Source: Bacteroidota bacterium (lineage in GTDB: Bacteria > Bacteroidota > Bacteroidia > Bacteroidales > JABHKC01). Taken from it: a stretch of DNA of 64,000 nucleotides. The translations under genes and the position numbers were made by a program. Positions 30,004-43,849 of the stretch are shown here, in pieces. The stretch covers positions 6,572 through 70,571 of the forward strand of contig JABHKC010000098.1 in the NCBI GenBank assembly GCA_018692315.1, written 5' to 3'. Numbering within the stretch: position 1 is the first letter of the stretch; every line of letters begins with the position of its first letter. Below the pieces are notes generated by a model. That model had not been told where the DNA came from. It saw only the letters and a list, made by a program, of their open reading frames with translations, and searched no databases.

Positions 30004-30036
30004 AGCCGGGAGGATTTTACTTCCGGCTTTTTTTTA
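30004..30036 (+). terminator. intrinsic terminator after actP (probably bidirectional)
   Basis: agccggga / ttccggct stem, followed by a T run on the + strand and preceded by aaaa. Confidence 0.7.
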
Positions 30037-33790: not shown

Positions 33791-33879
33791 AAAAAAAGCG
33801 TTGGCGCAGCCATACTCATTGACAAGTTTTGGCGATTGCGGTGGGCTTTTCGAGCGACTTGGCAATGTGTATGGTTGCG
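33791..33879 (-). terminator. long imperfect hairpin plus U7 tract downstream of the island operon
   Basis: 33805-33827 pairs with 33857-33879 (about 20 of 23 positions); on the minus strand followed by ccaacgc-ttttttt (plus-strand A7 at 33791-33797). Confidence 0.4.
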
Positions 33880-33891
33880 AAGTGTTGGGGT

Positions 33892-35247
33892 CTATTCTCC
33901 ATTTATTTCAATTAGTTTATCATTAAAATTCAGACCATTGTAATCAAATACATTCGATAAGTCATTTGAAGGTTCTATTCCAAATCTTGTACACATTTCA
34001 ATGTAGCAATCTTTTATTGTATCAAACTGTTCAATGTCATTTGTTCTTACCCCATTATTATCAGTTCCAGAGACTTTACATTTACTGTAAATTGAAATCC
34101 TTTCAGGCTGACCATCTATTTCAAGTAAAACAATTTGTTCTGCAGATTTCATTCTTACAGAGAAATATGTACCATCAGGTTTGTTTAATACAAAATTCAT
34201 ATTCTTTTTACTCCTATGAAATAATCTACCTCTTTTGAGGTTATTTAAGTCCTTGGTGATTTTAATAAGACTGTTCAATTCGTCTCTAAAAAATGGTGCA
34301 TCTACATCATTGTGAGCAAGTGGATTAAGAAGCAAGTCTTTGTATGTCTTCAAATCTGTAAATGGTGTGAAATCAACATTTTCTTCGGTACAGAAAATTT
34401 TAAAAGCGTGGATAAAATCATTTAAGTTTTTGTCAAATAATTTTGTCTCACCATCAACAGTTTTTTCTTCCTTTTTTAATTTTACAGGCAATAGTTCACC
34501 TAACTTTCTTTCAATCTCTTTCCTTAAATATATACCACAAGCAGCATAATCGTGCTGAATTAAAAAATCTTGTGCTGTTTGAATATTGTTTGGAAAAGGT
34601 TTAAAGTAAGGTTTTGAAAAGTCACCTGTATCATCTTGATACATTTCAATGAAATTCCAAATGTTAGTTTTACTATTAAATCTTATTTTGCTTTTTGCTA
34701 ATTCATAAAATGATTTGTCGTGAGTCATAAGAACTAACTGGTAGTCATCAGAATATTTTCCTAATAACAAATTCAAAACGATATTCCTGTTTCGCATATC
34801 TAAACTCAATAGCATATCATCTATTACTAAGGCTTTTAAATCTGCATCATAAAGTTTATAATCTAAAATAGCAAATCTTAATGAAAGACCAATTGCAGAC
34901 CATTTTGCCTCGTTTAAAAATGTGTGTGGCTTTTTAATTTTCGGATTATTTATATCGTCATATTTTGTTAGAGAAAAAAGTATTTTATGATTATAAAAAG
35001 TAAATTCTTCTTCTTGTACTTCAAATTGTTTTTGCTTTAATTCAAGTTTGATTTTAAAGTTGTAATCAAATTCATCTTCGATTAACTCATTTGCTTTTGT
35101 TGTGATGTTTGATATAAAACTCTTTAGCCAATTATTCCAAGCCTTTACCTTCTGCTTGTATGTTATGTATTTCTTATAATCTCCCTTTTCTTCAATTGAT
35201 AGTGCGGTTCTTAAAGATGCTGTGGGAAAAACATCTTCACCGTGCAA
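33892..35247 (-). CDS. ABC-type (PrrC/RloC-like AAA_13-style) ATPase, C-terminal fragment: signature, Walker B, H-loop and an effector-like domain of about 260 aa
   Basis: LNEAKWSAIGLSL (signature-like), ALVIDDMLLSLD (Walker B/D-loop), LVLMTHD (H-loop). The TTG start is an ORF-caller artefact, because the frame stays open upstream to the A9 tract at 35311-35319. Confidence 0.7.
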   Translation of the reverse strand: MHGEDVFPTASLRTALSIEEKGDYKKYITYKQKVKAWNNWLKSFISNITTKANELIEDEFDYNFKIKLELKQKQFEVQEEEFTFYNHKILFSLTKYDDINNPKIKKPHTFLNEAKWSAIGLSLRFAILDYKLYDADLKALVIDDMLLSLDMRNRNIVLNLLLGKYSDDYQLVLMTHDKSFYELAKSKIRFNSKTNIWNFIEMYQDDTGDFSKPYFKPFPNNIQTAQDFLIQHDYAACGIYLRKEIERKLGELLPVKLKKEEKTVDGETKLFDKNLNDFIHAFKIFCTEENVDFTPFTDLKTYKDLLLNPLAHNDVDAPFFRDELNSLIKITKDLNNLKRGRLFHRSKKNMNFVLNKPDGTYFSVRMKSAEQIVLLEIDGQPERISIYSKCKVSGTDNNGVRTNDIEQFDTIKDCYIEMCTRFGIEPSNDLSNVFDYNGLNFNDKLIEINGE

Positions 35248-35251
35248 ATTT

Positions 35252-35803
35252 TTAATTCTTTCTGGTCCCTTTTTTAATTCTTCTAATTCTTTTAAACAGG
35301 GTGAAGCTCCTTTTTTTTACATATGGCAATACTTCTTCTTCAAACCAAAGCCAAAGGTCATTATCTTTTGAGTGTTTTAGGTTGTGCAACTGGAAAAGAA
35401 CACGATAGTTTATAAAATCGGTTGCCATACTGCTTTTTACTACATCGACATTATTGCGAATTGATAAATCTCTACTTTTTCTGGAAATCCGAAATGTTTT
35501 TGGATTATTGCCATCATCATCTTTTAAAACCACTTTAATAAATGAGTTATTCCTGGCTGACGATGCGTGAATATTTACAAGACTATCATTACCAGTTTTC
35601 TTAAAGTACTTCCTAATATCATCATCATCCTTTTTTAGGCTCGATTCAAGTAATGTGTATAAAGCCCAATAGATTGTTGATTTTCCACTTCCGTTTTCGC
35701 CATAAATTAGTAAATGGTTTCCATCAATTTTAAGCAAAGGGCTTGCTGGCTCAACTTCCGAAAAAAACTTAAAATCGTTAATATGTAATTCGTGCAACTT
35801 CAT
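35252..35803 (-). CDS. ABC-type ATPase, N-terminal fragment (Walker A), truncated by a frameshift in the A9 tract
   Basis: LLIYGENGSGKSTIYWAL Walker A. The last 17 residues (RSFTLFKRIRRIKKGTRKN) are out-of-frame read-through after the homopolymer. Confidence 0.7.
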   Translation of the reverse strand: MKLHELHINDFKFFSEVEPASPLLKIDGNHLLIYGENGSGKSTIYWALYTLLESSLKKDDDDIRKYFKKTGNDSLVNIHASSARNNSFIKVVLKDDDGNNPKTFRISRKSRDLSIRNNVDVVKSSMATDFINYRVLFQLHNLKHSKDNDLWLWFEEEVLPYVKKRSFTLFKRIRRIKKGTRKN

Positions 35804-35804
35804 A

Positions 35805-38800
35805 TTAATGGGTTGATTCGTTTATGCGTTTTATGATATTTGGGCTATTAACAGATGAAAGCAATATTCTATTCCTAATTGGATTATCCTTCTCCTTTAA
35901 TTTGTAATATTCACGTTGAATTACATCCCGCTTTTCTTCAAAGGTTTCTAATTGGTTTATGCCTTCAAAATCTACAAATTGCAATACGTCTATTTTGTTT
36001 TCTTTCATATGCTTTTCAAAATAGAGTTCGTAAACCATATAGTCAATTACTTCTTCAAATGTAGATGACAATATTTCATGTGAAATACTATTTAAGATTG
36101 ATTCTGAGCTTTTCTTTATGAATAAAATGTAGTCAACTATTACATTAAATATTTCCTCAATTTCAATACTTGGATATGGTACAAGCAAGGGTTCTAATGC
36201 CTGAACACTTATTATTTGGTCACCTGTACCAGTTTGTGGTGAAGTTTTTATTAATTGATAAAGACCAATCTTCGAATTTAACACCGCGGTTAAATATTTT
36301 ATTTTTTCTCCTGTTGCAATACAAGTACTATCTAAGCAGTATATTTCTTCATCAGAATATGCAAAACGCATAATAGAACCGATCCGTTTCCAAATTACTT
36401 TTTCTTTCTTAAATTCAGCAACAAAACCTATTGGGTCTTGTGTTTCAAACCATTTATTCCCTGATTTCTTTCTCGTTTTTTCTTTAACACCTTTATTATT
36501 GATAAATGTTTCACCTGTTTGATTTAATTTAGGTTGAAAACTTTCAAGATACCTTCTAACAGCTTTAAAATCTTCTATTTCAATATTTAGACTTGGGAAA
36601 GTGGCTATTACATAATCATTCTTCCAATCCACATGATATCCCTGTATTTCACGACCCTTTAAGATGGGTCTTATAATTTCATCAGAAGAATTATCTTCTG
36701 CAACTAATTCGTCACGTTTTGCCTGGTCAATAATAAAAGCCCCATTAAAACCTGTTAAGATTCCTCTGTAAATTTCCAAATTCCAATCCCGTAGAGGCTT
36801 TCCAAATTCTACCAAAGCTTTATTAATAATTAGCTCTTCTTCATTTAAAACTATCCAAGCCTCTTCATTCACATCACATAGGGGAATAAAATCTTCATTT
36901 CTTAACGAAGTAATATTATATCTATTTGCTATTTCAATCCCCTTTACTTTATTTTTAAATGAATTCTTTTCACCAATAAAAATATTGGTATCAACTGTTG
37001 CACTATGAAATATCCCTGGACCAAGAATTAAAATTTTCTTGGGATTTATTTTTGTAAAGTAGTTTCTTAATGCTTTACCATATCCACCACGCATCCATTT
37101 ATTAGAAGTGATAAATGTTAATACACCACCTGTTTGCAGCAGATTAATTCCTTTTTCATAGAAAAGGCAATAAATATCTCCAGTGCGAGCAAATGTCTCA
37201 AAGCCTTCATTTTGCAAAATGTCAGCTTGTTTTCCCATTTTTTGTAATTGGATGTAAGGTGGATTCCCAATAAAGATATCAAAGCCTCCTTTTTCGAACA
37301 CATCCATAAAAAACAGATGCCAAAGAAAATAAGGGCGTTCATCGGTTTGTTCAAAGTCTTTTAACTTTTTACGCGCATTCCCTTTATTGTCCAAAAGTTT
37401 CTGCCGCTCTTTAATTTCCTTTACTTCTCGGCTTTTGTCATTATATATTTCTCTTAGCTCCTCATTCAGGTTTTCAAGTTTTATATTCAGTTTTTCCTGG
37501 TAGGTTGCTATTTCGATAAGAAGACGGTTTTCCCAAAATTCCAGAGATTTATCAATATGGTCGAGAACAATCTTATCAATGGCTTTATGTATTTTGGTCT
37601 TTTCATCTTTGTCCTCTACTTTAAAATAATCTTTAATCAACTGCTTTATGTCGGTTCTATTTTCTTCCGAAAAACTGTAATCTGTTTTTGGTTCTTCAAA
37701 TAGTGTTGGATTTACATGCATAACATTTGGTTCTTCAAATAAAGCAGTTTCACTCAAATCAATGCCTTCAAAACTTTCAAGCAAACTATTGCCTTGCATT
37801 ATTTTATAGTCAAGATTAGGTAAGGGCTCTGGTTTGGTTTCATCCACTACCAATGCCAACCAAAAACGTAATTGGGCAATATCAACTGCACCCTTTTCAA
37901 TATCCACTCCGTAAATAGAATTTTGGATTATGGCTTTTTTAACCTTTGCAGGATTAAATTCCTTATTGGTTTTCAGGTAAGGATAAATAAACTTTTTTGC
38001 TTCGAATAGTTCGTGTAAAATTCCGATAGGAAAAGCACCTGAACCAATTGCCGGGTCGCAAATTTTTACCTCATTTAACTTTTGGTCGAGGGCTATGGCA
38101 TTGTCTCTTACACTAAAATAAGATGAAACGCTGTGGTTACGTATGAACCATTCAACGTCAGCCTCAACTGGGAAGTGGTTTTTCAAATACTGTATTGTGC
38201 TTTCTTTGCACATATACTGGACTACTTCTTTGGGTGTATAAAAAGCTCCTTTTTCACGGTTTTCTTCGAGTAAGTTTTCAAAAATATGACCGAGCATTTC
38301 AGGATCAATTCCTACTTCGTGGTCATCGGGGCTGTTTTCATCAATGGTAAAATTGTATTGTGCAAAAAACTCAAACAGTTCTGCAAAATACTTTACAGGA
38401 AAATCAACACTCAAAATTTCTTTGGGTTTATCGGCATCAAATAATCCTCCATTCAAATATGGCACACGAGAACCATTGAGAAAACCATTTAATCCTTTGA
38501 TTTCAAAAACATCGTTTTTTCGTTTGGTGTTTAGTGTGTTAAAGAATAGTTTTGTTAAACAATGGCTATGAAATTGTTTTTTGTCTTCAAACTTCTCAAA
38601 AAGCAATTGCATAAATTGTTTTTCGCCACCTTCCCATTTTTTTGTATTAGCAGGGCAAGCCATCCAACCTTTCTTTTGCAGAAAATGTAGGAAAACAATA
38701 CGACCGAGAAGTTTTTTAGCAAAGTCGCGAATTGGTTTCTCTTGTTTGTCAGGTTCATCCTTTGATGTATCCAAAAGTATAGCCCGATAACCAAATTCAT

Positions 38801-39416
38801 CATTGGCAATGTATCTCCAAAACTTTTCGTAATGTTCTTTGTAGGATTTGAAGAAGTCCTTTTTCAATGGCTCAACCGAGAAAGTGTCCAATAATTGTTT
38901 AATACCAATTAATGCTCCCTTGGCTTTTTTCTCCGCCAATTCCGAAAGTCTTTTTGAGGCTGTAGTACATGATTCGTTGCCCCCAAGTAAATAGGTATAA
39001 CGTTTTGGTTTGGTTTCGCCTTTAATAAATTCACCAGTTTCCAAATCAATATCCGACCATTTGGCAATAAATGAAAAACGATAATCTTTTTGATTTTTAG
39101 AATAGAAAAACACCAAAGCACCGTGAGTAATATTTTGGTCGATATGTTTGGCTGCAATATCCCTTAATCCTTTACGGTTTTGGTCAATTCTAATGCTATC
39201 ATCAACTTCTACTTCGAAAATGGCAAGCGATTTATTGTCGTCCAGTTTAATAGCGCCGATCTGTTTTCCTGATTTTACTTTTTTCTGTTCAAAAAATGGA
39301 TTTGAAGGAGTCAGGAAATATTCAATTTTTCCAAAAAGCAAAGTCAATATAGATTTCCAATTTTCGTTGAAATTGTAATCTTTCTGTAATATATGTTTTA
39401 GGTCTTTTTCTTTCAT
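35805..39416 (-). CDS. Eco57I/PglX-type gamma-class N6-adenine DNA methyltransferase with TaqI-like C-terminal specificity domain (type IIG/IIL-like)
   Basis: 1203 aa; GAFYTPKEVV, motif I DPAIGSGAFP, long coiled insertion, motif IV IGNPPYIQ, TRD pattern YRGILTGFNGAFIID; N-terminal region of about 330 aa of uncertain function. Confidence 0.85.
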   Translation of the reverse strand: MKEKDLKHILQKDYNFNENWKSILTLLFGKIEYFLTPSNPFFEQKKVKSGKQIGAIKLDDNKSLAIFEVEVDDSIRIDQNRKGLRDIAAKHIDQNITHGALVFFYSKNQKDYRFSFIAKWSDIDLETGEFIKGETKPKRYTYLLGGNESCTTASKRLSELAEKKAKGALIGIKQLLDTFSVEPLKKDFFKSYKEHYEKFWRYIANDEFGYRAILLDTSKDEPDKQEKPIRDFAKKLLGRIVFLHFLQKKGWMACPANTKKWEGGEKQFMQLLFEKFEDKKQFHSHCLTKLFFNTLNTKRKNDVFEIKGLNGFLNGSRVPYLNGGLFDADKPKEILSVDFPVKYFAELFEFFAQYNFTIDENSPDDHEVGIDPEMLGHIFENLLEENREKGAFYTPKEVVQYMCKESTIQYLKNHFPVEADVEWFIRNHSVSSYFSVRDNAIALDQKLNEVKICDPAIGSGAFPIGILHELFEAKKFIYPYLKTNKEFNPAKVKKAIIQNSIYGVDIEKGAVDIAQLRFWLALVVDETKPEPLPNLDYKIMQGNSLLESFEGIDLSETALFEEPNVMHVNPTLFEEPKTDYSFSEENRTDIKQLIKDYFKVEDKDEKTKIHKAIDKIVLDHIDKSLEFWENRLLIEIATYQEKLNIKLENLNEELREIYNDKSREVKEIKERQKLLDNKGNARKKLKDFEQTDERPYFLWHLFFMDVFEKGGFDIFIGNPPYIQLQKMGKQADILQNEGFETFARTGDIYCLFYEKGINLLQTGGVLTFITSNKWMRGGYGKALRNYFTKINPKKILILGPGIFHSATVDTNIFIGEKNSFKNKVKGIEIANRYNITSLRNEDFIPLCDVNEEAWIVLNEEELIINKALVEFGKPLRDWNLEIYRGILTGFNGAFIIDQAKRDELVAEDNSSDEIIRPILKGREIQGYHVDWKNDYVIATFPSLNIEIEDFKAVRRYLESFQPKLNQTGETFINNKGVKEKTRKKSGNKWFETQDPIGFVAEFKKEKVIWKRIGSIMRFAYSDEEIYCLDSTCIATGEKIKYLTAVLNSKIGLYQLIKTSPQTGTGDQIISVQALEPLLVPYPSIEIEEIFNVIVDYILFIKKSSESILNSISHEILSSTFEEVIDYMVYELYFEKHMKENKIDVLQFVDFEGINQLETFEEKRDVIQREYYKLKEKDNPIRNRILLSSVNSPNIIKRINESTH

Positions 39417-40234
39417 TATTTCAACTTCTTAAGCCTGTCGTTATGTTTAAGCAACGATTTCATTTGGGTTATTGCCAATTGGTTAAGTTGCTGCAATCGT
39501 TCTGATTGTGGAATATCTTGTTGTATTAGCATTGCATTGATGCTTTCCATATTCGACAAAACTACTAATTGTTCAATGCTTGCAAAGTCTCTAATATTTC
39601 CCGTTTCGCCCGAATTTTCGTCACGCCATTGCTTGGCAGTTTTACCAAATAAAGCAAGGTTTAATACATCAGCCTCGTTGGCATAGATAAATGAAATTTG
39701 TCTTTTGTTGAGTTTTTCCGGAATTAGATTCTCTTTAATTGCATCGGTATGAATATGATAATTAACCTTTGCAAGTGTTCGTTGGAAATTCCATTCGAGT
39801 TTCAAACGGTCATTTTCATCTTCTTTAAGTCGTTGGTATTCTTTAACCAGAAGTAATTGAAATTTTGGACTAATCCACATTCCAAAATGAAAGGCAATGT
39901 CTTTATGAGCATAAGTTCCTCCATATCTTCCAGCCTTTGCAGTTAGACCAACAGCATTAGTAGCCTCAATCCACTGTTTAACAGATAAAACAAAATTATT
40001 ACTACCTGCTGTATTTTTAATTATACCGAATTCGGTATAATTAAAATCGGGATTATACAATGCTTCCCACTCACCAAGATATTCAATAGTACTTTTTAAA
40101 CTTAACCATTTAATTATTACAACCTCTTGATGTTGACTTCTTGCCATATCAGTAAGAGAAATATAATCATTTTCTTTTTGTGCGATTATCGCTATCTCTT
40201 TTCCTTCAATATTTATTTTCTTGTTTTTTGCCAT
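39416..40234 (-). CDS. KilA-N domain-containing protein
   Basis: ISLTDMAR...GTYAHKDIAFHFGMWISPKFQLLLVKEYQRL matches the KilA-N pattern common in Bacteroidota R-M loci; its stop overlaps the MTase ATG (TAATG). Confidence 0.7.
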   Translation of the reverse strand: MAKNKKINIEGKEIAIIAQKENDYISLTDMARSQHQEVVIIKWLSLKSTIEYLGEWEALYNPDFNYTEFGIIKNTAGSNNFVLSVKQWIEATNAVGLTAKAGRYGGTYAHKDIAFHFGMWISPKFQLLLVKEYQRLKEDENDRLKLEWNFQRTLAKVNYHIHTDAIKENLIPEKLNKRQISFIYANEADVLNLALFGKTAKQWRDENSGETGNIRDFASIEQLVVLSNMESINAMLIQQDIPQSERLQQLNQLAITQMKSLLKHNDRLKKLK

Positions 40235-40313: not shown

Positions 40314-43300
40314 TTATGTGTAACTTTCTGTTATTATAATCTCAGGATTCAATATTTTTGAAGTAACAACTTTTACTTGTTCCACTTCATCAATTTCCTC
40401 GTTTACCAGTGGATAACTTTTCAATATGCCAATTATTCTTTCCAGTATTATTACCGGCTTTAAAGGACTTTTACCAACTGCTCTTTTTAGTTTGTTAATA
40501 TCACGTTGTAAATTTTGAAATCTACCTTTCCGAATGGCTTCTTTTGCAGTAATTATCAATTCTGTCTCTGCATCGTTTGTAAAAGGCAGATTAATCATTG
40601 CATCCAGGTAAGAAATTGCACGTTTTTCGTTTGGTCCTTGCGTAACATCAACTTTTTTATCTTTTGCTTTTTCCTCTTCAAGTTTTTCCGAAAACAGTTT
40701 AATTGCTGTTTTTACTTGTTCGTGATGTTTGGAATGTAAGGGTATTCCTTTTTCGTTTGCATCGGCTTCAAATTTCTTTATTGTTTCAAGAAAGGTTAAT
40801 TCTTCAATTTCATCTTTTGAATTCACATAAATAAAGGCATCTCTTTTTGCATCTTTAACAAAACTGATAGTGCTATTATTTAAGTCGCTGTTTTTTCTTC
40901 CGACTCTTGCCCGTAAAGGCATATTTTTTATTTGTTTGAAAAATGTTGGGTCTTTTTCTTTAATGTCCCTTATCATCATTAAATAAGCCAACTTCTCATC
41001 TTTTTCCTCTTCTAATTCGTGGTCAAAAAGTCCAAAAGTTTCTATCTCCTCATCTGGCGAATATATTTGACTATCTTCTCCAAGTGCAGCGTGAAAAGCC
41101 TGTAACTTCATTATTGCTTTTTTCTCCAATTCAATATCACTATTAACCTTTGCTGTTGGGTAGAAATTATAAACGTGTACTTCTTTTGCAATTGAACCAA
41201 TTCTATTTACCCGACCAATTCTTTGCATCAATCGGGTTGAATTCCAAGGTGTATCATAGTTGACAATCACATTTGCTCTATGTAAGTTAATTCCCTCTGC
41301 CAGAACTTCTGTTGAGATAACAATGTTGAAATTATTTTTTTGCTCCGATTTTAGAATATTAGCATCAAAATTACTTCTGATTATTGGCATTTTTTCTTTT
41401 CGTGATTTACTATCCACCATCAATATGTTTTCATCAATATATTTTGGTAATTCACGATATAAATATTCTGTAGTTTCTTTGCTTTCAGAAAAAACTATCA
41501 ATTTTGAGGTTGGATTAATTTTCTTCTTTAGAAGTATGGTTATCAAATAGTCAGCAAAGACTTCCAATTTAGGGTCGTCATCTATTTTTTGCCATTCTTT
41601 ATTTAACGATTTTAATAATTCGTAATCATTTTTAAGTCCTGGTAAGAAGTCGTATTCAAAATCATCAGGCTCACAAATATCTATTGTTGGGTCTTCTATC
41701 GATTTCTCAATTATCAATTCTAATAATTCTTCCTCTTTTCCTTCATTAATAAAGTCCGATACTGGTAAGTTTGGTGCAATATAAATCTTGCCATTTTCAA
41801 ACATTGTAACCATTGCTTTAGTAGCCATCATAAAGCGATACAAGGATTTCTTAAAAGCATAAAAACTACTGTCAATTCTTTTAACAAGTAATGTTTTCAT
41901 AATTTTTGCCAACTGACTGGAAATCATATCGGCTTGTTTATACTTTGCTTTTTTATGTGGTTTCAGAAAAGCAATTGCTTGGTATCTGTTGTAAGTTAAG
42001 CCTTGTGTTGGATGGCTTAATACAAACATTGTTTTATCATAAATGGTATCAAGATGTGGCTCTAATTGATAAAGTATCTTTTTTGGTGCTCCTACTTTTG
42101 GAAACTTAATGCCTTGCTTTTCTAAATCTTTAGAATATAAATCGTGAGCCATTAAATCGGTTCGTGTTCTTCGCACAATTAATGGTTCAATAACCTTTGT
42201 TCTAATTCTTTCATAAATCCGCTTAACTCCTTGTTGAACAACTTTTATGTCCGGCTCTTTTTTTAGTTTTTTATACGCATCAATTTGAATTCTGAAAAAA
42301 TGTTGCAAGTTCCCAATTTCAAGTGTAGAGTTTTTACTGTCTTGAAACAGATAAACTAAATTCGCAATATCTTCAGGTTTGTTATTCAGAGGTGTCGCTG
42401 AAACAAGCATTACTTTTTTTTGAACAGTTCTACCATCAGGAAGTATTCTACGAGTTGATGTTTTACATATTTTCTGTAATTCATTATACATTGTTGCTGT
42501 ATCAGAACGAAATTTATGTGCCTCATCAACAATTATTAAATCATATTTTCTTGCATCTCTAATTTTATGCAAACTTCCGTTTGTAATAATTTTTACATTA
42601 TCTAATCTGAATTTGTCGGTTGTTTCAGCCCAATTTTCTTTTAAAGCAGGCGGCACAATAATTAGGGTACGTGAGCGATGTGATGGAAAACCATTTGAAT
42701 AGAAATATTTTTTAGCAATTATTGTTGCTACAACTGTTTTCCCGAGTCCAACAACATCAGCCAAAATAAAACCATCGTGTTTCATTATTTTGGTAAAGCC
42801 ATCATTAACAGCATCTATTTGATATGAAAGCCTTTTAAATCCTCTCGGTAAATCGGTTATTGAGTTTGGGTCAAATTCTATACTTTTTCCAAAGTACTCA
42901 ACCAGGAATTTTAAATAAACTTCATAAGGTGTGTATGTGTCATTTAGATATGTTTCTTTTTGTAACTTCTCAATATAATCTTCCTCTATTGGAATTGATT
43001 CTCCCCATAATTTCTCAAATGTTTCAGAAGCAAAATCAATGTCGGTATTATCCCTAAGTTCTATATTAAATTCAAAATTTCTTGAAAGTCCAGCATCTGT
43101 TAAATTGCTTGAACCAGTAATTACAGAACCATATCCGTGGTTGTGTTTTTCTTGTTCTTTGAAGATGTAAATTTTAGCGTGAATATTTTGTTTAGGATGA
43201 ACCTTAATTTTTAGTTTTCCTGTAACGATATCTGAAATCAATTGAAGCATTCCTTCTTCAACTTCTTTATCATATTCGGCTTCTTGAATACTCTTTTTTA

Positions 43301-43574
43301 TTTCCTTGAAGAATTCATTTTGTGCTTTCTCAGCATTTGGATCAAATAGTAATCCTTGTTGTGAGGCTTCATTAATTAGATTGTCAATGTTTATTCCAAC
43401 AAGTATTCTTATTTCAGATGCCTTCTCAATGAATTTTCTAATCCTGAAATAGCCAGAAGCACGAAAATATCCAACTAAAGCATCAAAGAAATGAATATTT
43501 CTATGTTTGAATATTCCCTCAATTTTATTGATTAAGGTATTCTCTGCTTCGTTTGTAAAAAATTTAGTGCTCAT
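40314..43574 (-). CDS. PLD-nuclease-domain / SNF2-family helicase fusion protein
   Basis: Single HKD motif near aa 132-158 (NIHAKIYIF...GSSNLT); SNF2 motifs LADVVGLGKT, LIIVDEAHKFR, VSATPLNN, AEGINL, QRIGRVNRIG. Confidence 0.85.
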   Translation of the reverse strand: MSTKFFTNEAENTLINKIEGIFKHRNIHFFDALVGYFRASGYFRIRKFIEKASEIRILVGINIDNLINEASQQGLLFDPNAEKAQNEFFKEIKKSIQEAEYDKEVEEGMLQLISDIVTGKLKIKVHPKQNIHAKIYIFKEQEKHNHGYGSVITGSSNLTDAGLSRNFEFNIELRDNTDIDFASETFEKLWGESIPIEEDYIEKLQKETYLNDTYTPYEVYLKFLVEYFGKSIEFDPNSITDLPRGFKRLSYQIDAVNDGFTKIMKHDGFILADVVGLGKTVVATIIAKKYFYSNGFPSHRSRTLIIVPPALKENWAETTDKFRLDNVKIITNGSLHKIRDARKYDLIIVDEAHKFRSDTATMYNELQKICKTSTRRILPDGRTVQKKVMLVSATPLNNKPEDIANLVYLFQDSKNSTLEIGNLQHFFRIQIDAYKKLKKEPDIKVVQQGVKRIYERIRTKVIEPLIVRRTRTDLMAHDLYSKDLEKQGIKFPKVGAPKKILYQLEPHLDTIYDKTMFVLSHPTQGLTYNRYQAIAFLKPHKKAKYKQADMISSQLAKIMKTLLVKRIDSSFYAFKKSLYRFMMATKAMVTMFENGKIYIAPNLPVSDFINEGKEEELLELIIEKSIEDPTIDICEPDDFEYDFLPGLKNDYELLKSLNKEWQKIDDDPKLEVFADYLITILLKKKINPTSKLIVFSESKETTEYLYRELPKYIDENILMVDSKSRKEKMPIIRSNFDANILKSEQKNNFNIVISTEVLAEGINLHRANVIVNYDTPWNSTRLMQRIGRVNRIGSIAKEVHVYNFYPTAKVNSDIELEKKAIMKLQAFHAALGEDSQIYSPDEEIETFGLFDHELEEEKDEKLAYLMMIRDIKEKDPTFFKQIKNMPLRARVGRKNSDLNNSTISFVKDAKRDAFIYVNSKDEIEELTFLETIKKFEADANEKGIPLHSKHHEQVKTAIKLFSEKLEEEKAKDKKVDVTQGPNEKRAISYLDAMINLPFTNDAETELIITAKEAIRKGRFQNLQRDINKLKRAVGKSPLKPVIILERIIGILKSYPLVNEEIDEVEQVKVVTSKILNPEIIITESYT

Positions 43575-43849
43575 ATGGTTTTCAATATTTCTTTTAGTCC
43601 ATCTTTCAAATAATTAAGTTCTCCCAAGTCCGTAATTATTGCTGATTGTATAAACTGTATTTCAATCTCTTTTTCTGCTTTATCCAAAGTTTCTGCTAAA
43701 ATTGGAATCATTTCAGTTGTTGCACGTCTTTCGTTTCTCTCAATTTTACTCAATATTGAGGTATCAATATCAAGTGCCGCTGCAACTTTTCTCAGAGGTA
43801 ATCCTATGTCCTCTCTTGATTTCCGTATGTATTCTCCAAACGTTTTCAT
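43571..43849 (-). CDS. XRE-family helix-turn-helix transcriptional regulator
   Basis: FGEYIRKSREDIGLPLRKVAAALDIDTSILSKIERNER; ATGA overlap with the helicase gene. Confidence 0.8.
   Translation of the reverse strand: MKTFGEYIRKSREDIGLPLRKVAAALDIDTSILSKIERNERRATTEMIPILAETLDKAEKEIEIQFIQSAIITDLGELNYLKDGLKEILKTI

Follow-up and report, generated by a model that had tools for sequence, protein, structure and literature searches.

The terminal gene of an R-M-like defence operon in an uncultured marine Bacteroidota clone, encoding an SMC/Rad50-type ABC ATPase, is split by one additional adenine in a homopolymer (A7 to A8), and this split allele is fixed across independent metagenome assemblies of the clone, with intact partner genes alongside it and intact full-length orthologues in its relatives. 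The extra base, fixed in one clone, probably arose recently by replication slippage (+1) and probably inactivates the ATPase; the ATPase is probably missing from the defence system of this widespread marine organism. All coordinates refer to the window, that is, the whole stretch of DNA analysed, 64,000 nucleotides in length.

Structure of the split gene

The two ORFs of 183 and 451 aa listed for this region are two halves of one gene, arranged around the homopolymer as follows.

35252 to 35803, minus strand: 5' ATPase fragment (183-aa ORF), with the Walker A motif GENGSGKS and the N-lobe of an SMC/Rad50-type ABC head
35311 to 35318, minus strand (T8 on the plus strand): A8 homopolymer, the +1 insertion site, at which A7 or A10 would restore the frame
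33892 to 35310, minus strand: 3' ATPase part in the +1 frame, homology resuming at GGA (35310-35308)
35247 to 33892, minus strand: listed 451-aa ORF, with a TTG start at 35247, 5 nt past the stop of the 5' ORF

Across the junction the minus strand reads TTG CCA TAT GTA AAA AAA AGG AGC. The 183-aa ORF comprises 164 genuine residues, up to PYVKK, followed by 19 out-of-frame residues (rather than the 17 counted in the original prediction) and a TAA at 35254-35252, and the 3' part carries the helical insert, the signature region, Walker B (DD), the D-loop, the H-loop and a C-terminal domain of ~240 aa. In the +1 frame, a TAA at 35319-35317 overlaps the start of the run, and the frame is open from there to 33892. 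Because homology changes frame between PYVKK and GASPC in the alignment to homologues, the frame break is limited to the run; the expectation that an ABC ATPase gene is split at a homopolymer, and that the break is confined to it, was therefore borne out, the frame change lying exactly inside the run. The tract itself had been misread as A9 at 35311-35319, and is in fact A8, with plus-strand T8 at 35311-35318. Since the intact reading GTA AAA AAA GGA requires A7, the lesion is correctly described as A7 to A8 (+1).

Deletion of one A (A8 to A7) yields a single protein of 636 aa, the A7 and A10 repairs giving 636 or 637 aa; the anticipated removal of one A to form a protein of about 640 aa does join the halves, the step involved being A8 to A7 and not A9 to A8. 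The A7-repaired protein aligns gap-free and over its full length with more than 100 intact homologues of 617-650 aa. The repaired junction reads PYVKKGASPCLKELEELKKGPERIKNLHGEDVF and shows no gap against intact homologues such as P0001, the closest of them, which reads PYVKKGAEPCLKEL, with PYVKKGAEPCLKELEGLKKGPEKIRNLQGEDVF at this point. A single-base repair that gives a seamless full-length alignment with more than 100 homologues is beyond chance, the run itself being unexceptional.

Operon context and features of the ATPase

The ATPase gene is the last of an operon with the order XRE-HTH, HKD-SNF2 helicase, (KilA-N), N6-methylase and ATPase, whose remaining members are listed below.

43571 to 43849, minus strand: XRE-type HTH, 92 aa, first gene of the operon, with a 4-nt overlap with the helicase start
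40314 to 43574, minus strand: N-terminal PLD/HKD nuclease fused to SNF2 helicase (PLDc_2 + SNF2 + Helicase_C), 1086 aa, intact
39416 to 40234, minus strand: KilA-N domain gene, PADLOC candidate PDC-S22 (E 2.5e-130), between helicase and methylase
35805 to 39416, minus strand: Eco57I/PglX-like N6-adenine DNA methyltransferase, 1203 aa, intact, resembling type IIG enzymes, its gene lying immediately 5' of the ATPase gene

The methylase carries an Eco57I/N6_Mtase domain match, and the arrangement of XRE-HTH and helicase recurs in the related loci L014/L015. The ATPase can be regarded as a genuine core component of the R-M-like system, since the helicase-methylase-ATPase order is kept in more than 20 loci across phyla, including Bacteroidota, Sulfurovum, a beta-proteobacterium and Poribacteria. 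In the window, no tRNAs were found and Rfam gave no match.

The KilA-N gene is present in some related loci only (L019, L028, L036 and L038), in the manner of an embedded accessory gene. Additionally, the intact HKD-SNF2 helicase gene contains one in-frame A8 of its own (42414-42421, minus strand), which is equally slippage-prone.

Residues 1-378 of the ATPase form an SMC/Rad50-type ABC head, as indicated by matches to Pfam SMC_N (41.2 bits against a cut-off of 40) and AAA_23, by a PDB profile search that returned Rad50 at 6.5e-07, and by Foldseek matches of the AlphaFold model of P0001 (pLDDT 85.8) to the cohesin SMC1A, SMC and Rad50 heads at 2e-11. Invariant residues include the Walker A stretch G35-S42, N297/E298, Walker B D328/D329, S333-D335 of the D-loop, and H361, so that Walker A, signature region, Walker B, D-loop, H-loop and a bipartite head with helical insert, as characteristic of SMC/Rad50-type ABC proteins, are all present. 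According to the model, the break at residue 164/165 falls past the N-lobe and ahead of the long helical insert.

The C-terminal domain (33895-34620 in the window, minus strand; residues ~395-636) is modelled by AF2 with a pLDDT of 89 as helical and beta-rich subdomains, and gave nothing significant in Pfam, PADLOC, the PDB sequence profile search, Foldseek against PDB, or BFVD. Its helical half shows faint, non-significant matches to HEPN-like folds (2hsb, 2q00 and Csm6; probability ~0.8, E ~0.6), and its conserved residues are R427, E431, N493 and H497, a pattern that is not Rx4-6H. On the basis of the model, the domain could be a PrrC/RloC-like effector domain; the earlier suggestion that the gene encodes a potentially toxic effector thus receives weak support from structural matches that are themselves non-significant.

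Occurrence of the A8 allele across metagenomes

As homopolymers are classic error sites, the split might be attributed to an artefact of sequencing or assembly, the true sequence being A7 and the gene intact. The source clone is sampled in many metagenomes, and 12 contigs from 12 samples, obtained from ENA and JGI and originating from different centres and assemblers (SPAdes NODE_, MEGAHIT k141_, JGI), were read at this site. Samples that contain the clone include JGI 3300000164, 3300003496, 3300022912, 3300024259, 3300025584 and 3300028274, as well as ENA ERZ508549, ERZ23491529 and ERZ27250217. All 12 independent contigs carry A8, as consensus assemblies in which minority length variants are hidden, and all match the window at 100% identity over 4-13 kb, with zero indels even at other runs and with 4 SNPs near the divergent end of one. 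Furthermore, the exact 183-aa fragment is recorded on 29 contigs, at least four of which are NCBI MAG records, and the exact 451-aa fragment on 36 (23, with 13 more under a TTG=Leu translation).

Contigs retrieved through the ATPase fragment itself constitute a sample biased toward split alleles. A look-up through the exact neighbouring 1203-aa methylase returned 22 contigs in two neighbourhood types, both of them with the 183 + 451 split. Exact A7, A9 and A10 products were absent among ~15 billion sequences, and no near-identical intact protein was found in the collection, where the best full-length relative is 85% identical and none exceeds 86%. The agreement of the 12 contigs across samples, centres and assemblers, the absence of indels at their other runs, the MAG records and the exclusively split alleles of the methylase-anchored look-up led to rejection of the sequencing-error reading, and an artefact is extremely improbable. 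Every observation of the A8 allele represents one clone in one state, and 'fixed' accordingly rests on one evolutionary sample.

Relatives were also sought by broader scans. In a family-alignment scan of genome contigs the generic P-loop pattern dominated, and no more than 13 loci came back; a metagenome scan returned 10 relatives, with the clone itself absent among them.

A further observation concerns the region downstream of the operon. The contig ERZ508549 NODE_864 (L004), from the same clone, matches the window to 33552 and carries different genes beyond (L004 7696 onward), with 4 SNPs just before the ~33552 junction and still with A8. Either the region downstream of the operon varies from this point on, or the contig is a chimera.

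The homopolymer in its family and its genome

The long run is new in the window's lineage, since its relatives read GTG/GTT AAA AAA GG or AAA ATT at the same site: GTG AAA AAA GGA in L013, GTT AAA AAA GGT in L016 and GTT AAA ATT GGT in L014. Most homologues have KI or KR, not KK, at the run position, and no conserved long tract was found in the orthologues, which show an A6 interrupted by G/T, or AAA ATT. Judging from these sequences, the A7 precursor appears to have arisen in the window's lineage from an ordinary Lys-Lys pair and a GTA valine codon. A comparison of tract length in relatives had been proposed in the original prediction as a check on switching; it identifies the long run as lineage-specific and absent from orthologues.

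Runs of this kind are common in the window, whose genome has a GC content of 32%. ORFs of at least 150 aa contain 44 A7/T7 and 7 A8/T8 runs, about 1 per kb, and six other A8/T8 runs lie in frame within intact ORFs. Besides the one in the helicase gene (42414-42421), an A8/T8 run is located at 30028-30035. The coding share of A/T runs is 44/62 at 7 nt, 7/18 at 8 nt and 0/2 from 9 nt upwards, whereas 81% of the DNA is coding; this small sample, counted in the window only, hints that runs of 8-9 nt or longer are selected against in the coding DNA of this genome. Baranov et al. (2005; PMC1088944) link the scarcity of long A/T runs in coding DNA, a pattern that the window's counts resemble, to selection against slippage, typically seen from a length of 9 nt, and genes interrupted at A/T runs can regain their reading frame in the mRNA (PMC1088944). 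As runs of at least 8 nt appear depleted in coding sequence, A8 may be mildly slippery, possibly to an extent sufficient for some rescue.

Phase variation driven by SSRs is well established for R-M systems, and a run of eight is on the short side for a phase-variable A/T tract. Reversible slipped-strand phase variation would make the gene a contingency locus that toggles between A7 (ON) and A8 (OFF), switching the ATPase and with it the defence system. This explanation is favoured by a break that lies exactly in a homopolymer, by a frame that is restored in one step and then contains no second lesion, by the membership of the gene in an R-M-like system, and by the apparent depletion of runs of at least 8 nt in the window's coding DNA. 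However, no length variant of the run was found in the 12/12 contigs, in ~65 contig records or in 5.8 billion protein clusters, the run is absent from orthologues, the six other A8/T8 runs are stable in frame within intact genes, and relatives lose the gene through non-reversible lesions. Of the features expected of an SSR contingency locus, the frame-switching repeat is present, but tract-length polymorphism was not observed in the contigs and records searched, nor was the tract retained in orthologues. The ON/OFF switch put forward in the original prediction thus gains no positive support from a run of which no length variant is recorded, which is not conserved and whose like is ordinary in the genome, and such switching is unlikely.

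Age of the lesion and decay in relatives

Among the best 120 protein clusters, three relatives carry an ATPase broken by other, non-reversible lesions. In L017 (126-4191), an in-frame TAA occurs at ATPase codon 104 and the methylase is 5'-truncated, its first 474 residues being gone; in L018 (3605-5472), the P-loop region is deleted and a frameshift is present; and L039 (2554-3066) retains an isolated ATPase remnant, residues 41-212, with no methylase nearby. Because the three relatives were inactivated independently, loss of the ATPase gene or of the system can be considered a recurrent and ordinary event. Inactivating lesions in orthologues had been named beforehand as an outcome that would speak for plain decay and against switching, and the reading of decay is the best supported, in the form of a recent loss-of-function mutation, relatives having been inactivated by other kinds of lesion.

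In the window, disruption of the ORF relative to intact orthologues, as in a pseudogene, is accompanied neither by further lesions nor by signs of relaxed selection. The repaired frame contains no other stop or indel, and a relative-rate count against L013 and L032 revealed no excess of amino-acid change on the window's terminal branch (unique nonsynonymous/synonymous changes of 36/62 on the window branch, and of 24/53 and 37/69 in the intact relatives L013 and L032, respectively). The lesion appears to be young, given that there is no second lesion and no excess of amino-acid changes; from these sequence comparisons, either the frameshift would be recent or the gene would still be under constraint. 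The fully open downstream frame of 451 codons at 32% GC fits a recent lesion, and equally fits continued selection.

Origin and consequences of the frameshift

In the mechanism considered probable, slippage would have added one A to the lineage-specific A7, converting GTA AAA AAA GGA into GTA AAA AAA A GGA and frameshifting the SMC/Rad50-like ATPase gene; the mutation is fixed in one clonal population. Translation would stop 19 codons past the run and sever the Walker-A half from the half that holds the signature, Walker B and H-loop, leaving the ATPase lost or down to trace levels. Losing a restriction-side or suicide component while the methylase stays would be harmless to the cell, and the loss may have been tolerated or even favoured. 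Reversion at the same run would be possible in principle; nothing points to its use as a switch.

A different consequence would follow if the A8 allele were a low-expression state, in which some full-length ATPase is still made by leaky or recoded expression. Two routes could lead to this: the RNA polymerase could slip and leave one A out of the transcript, or tRNA-Lys could slip by +1 in the ribosome on A AAA AAA AGG, with AGG in the A site; the product would in both cases read exactly VKKGASPC. The codon following the run in the 0 frame, AGG, is uncommon (3.0 per 1000 codons vs 14.1 for AGA), a +1 slip would leave AAA in the P site with GGA as the next codon, the downstream frame is fully open, and restoration at the mRNA level is documented for genes disrupted in A/T runs (PMC1088944). 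On the other hand, the frameshift is unconserved, the other family members examined being single ORFs at the site, and conservation, the hallmark of programmed recoding, is absent here; moreover, A8 is shorter than the 9-nt length from which selection against slippage is typical (PMC1088944). Leaky expression by either route is considered distinctly unlikely.

The same degree of doubt attaches to a more elaborate possibility, in which the A8 allele would act as a throttle or reversible switch that keeps a PrrC-like, potentially suicidal ABC ATPase at trace level inside an unnamed three-gene defence system. Slippage of the RNA polymerase, a +1 slip of the ribosome on AAA-AGG, or an occasional return from A8 to A7 could each serve this purpose, and jointly they too are given little probability.

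It is also conceivable that both fragments remain functional as a two-chain ATPase, in which the N-lobe chain would join a C-terminal chain translated anew from TTG 35247 to form an active head. By analogy, this would resemble Rad50 catalytic domains rebuilt from separate N and C chains, the C-halves of Rad50 being separate chains in profile-matched PDB entries (e.g., 1f2t_B and 1ii8_B); in addition, the model places the break between the N-lobe and the helical insert, and the TTG start is close to the stop. However, residues 165-185 would be lost, including the nearly invariant G179, TTG is a weak start, and no homologue is naturally split at this point, which renders a two-chain enzyme very improbable. 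Inactivation of the ATPase by a recent +1 slippage mutation stays the preferred reading.

A conserved hairpin at the 3' end of the operon

Immediately 3' of the ATPase stop lies a conserved hairpin element, with further copies at other loci.

33791 to 33885, minus strand: conserved hairpin element of ~95 nt, immediately 3' of the ATPase stop, with no Rfam match
Copies in L013 (4477-4570), L018 (5478-5572) and L032 (9902-9996)
Copies in L014 (9388-9480 and 194-284), L037 (9568-9663 and 655-744), L019 (11555-11645) and L042-L045

The arms of the hairpin, at 33873-33857 and 33827-33811, pair over ~15 bp and are followed by a T7 run, and the element has the layout CACATT-stem-TCGC...CCAAAA-stem-AAAGAG, with flanking GCCAACGC motifs. 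It maintains 88-91% nucleotide identity between loci with ATPases that are only 55-85% identical at the amino-acid level, is far better conserved than the coding sequence beside it, and 1-nt indels between copies indicate that it is non-coding. With a covariance model, diverged copies were detected at the same 3' place in L019 and L038, and L014 and L037 proved to have an additional copy on the upstream side of the operon; an upstream copy was not found in the window. In the model-fitted alignment, 10/15 pairs are changed on both sides, and 0/500 shuffles reach the observed covariation score. Furthermore, a pattern scan of IMG/VR returned four more copies, each adjoining an unrelated DNA-methylase gene (N6_N4, C5 or HsdM), with no copy close to a system like that of the window. 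Candidate roles for the element are those of a terminator, a 3'-UTR RNA, or a cassette-boundary or recombination site.

Implications

Taken alone, the joining of the two ORFs into a single frameshifted gene is a matter of routine annotation. The case also shows cleanly how independent metagenome assemblies allow a genuine, fixed frameshift in a homopolymer to be told from an assembly error. The context may outweigh the lesion itself, as the operon of HKD-SNF2 helicase, N6-methylase and SMC-like ATPase is conserved across phyla and fits none of the named systems tested, while a covarying hairpin of ~95 nt marks its 3' end and recurs beside other methylase genes.

Comparison with known systems

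Phasevarions are built on SSR-driven phase-variable R-M genes. The present case is like them in that a frameshift lies in a simple repeat within a gene of a methylase-linked defence operon; it is unlike them in showing no tract-length polymorphism and an unconserved tract, and in that the ATPase is hit rather than the mod or methylase gene.

Among named defence systems, DISARM class 1 (DrmD SNF2, DrmMI, DrmC PLD) shares the modules of an SNF2 helicase, a PLD nuclease and an N6-adenine methylase. Matches to the DrmD and DrmMI models are sub-threshold (DrmD reaching 149 bits vs the NCBIfam cut-off of 610), and the assignment to DISARM class 1 was rejected, given that DrmA and DrmB (DUF1998) are absent from the operon, the scores lie far under the cut-offs, and an ABC ATPase is present instead.

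A closer architectural parallel can be drawn with the DUF499-centred, BREX-related (Hma) Type-2 BR systems, in which an HKD-SNF2 helicase and an N6-methylase go together with a DUF499 AAA+ ATPase (PMC8565338, PMC12839542). The operon is likewise a tripartite set of ATPase, N6-methylase and helicase, with an N-terminal HKD nuclease fused to Swi2/Snf2, and it contains an HmaA model match at 8e-29. In contrast to BR/Hma, its ATPase is an SMC/Rad50-type ABC protein and not a DUF499 AAA+ enzyme, and the DUF3780 gene is absent; membership was rejected on the ABC/SMC type of the ATPase, in which no DUF499 match was found.

PrrC and RloC are ABC-HEPN anticodon nucleases linked to R-M operons (PMC3710099). 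The ATPase recalls them in joining an N-terminal Rad50/SbcC-like ABC ATPase to an extra C-terminal domain within an R-M-like operon, and a protein of the PrrC/RloC kind would be potentially toxic. PrrC/RloC models gave no sequence match, and the Rx4-6H motif was not identified in the C-terminal domain.

Equally relevant to the lesion itself are the authentic frameshifts and homopolymer pseudogenes of AT-rich bacteria (PMC1088944). Unlike the usual authentic frameshifts, the run here measures 8 nt and thus lies under the 9-nt threshold (PMC1088944). As in those genes, an A/T run altered in length by one base divides a coding sequence that is intact in all other respects, and the frame could formally be restored in the DNA or in the mRNA.
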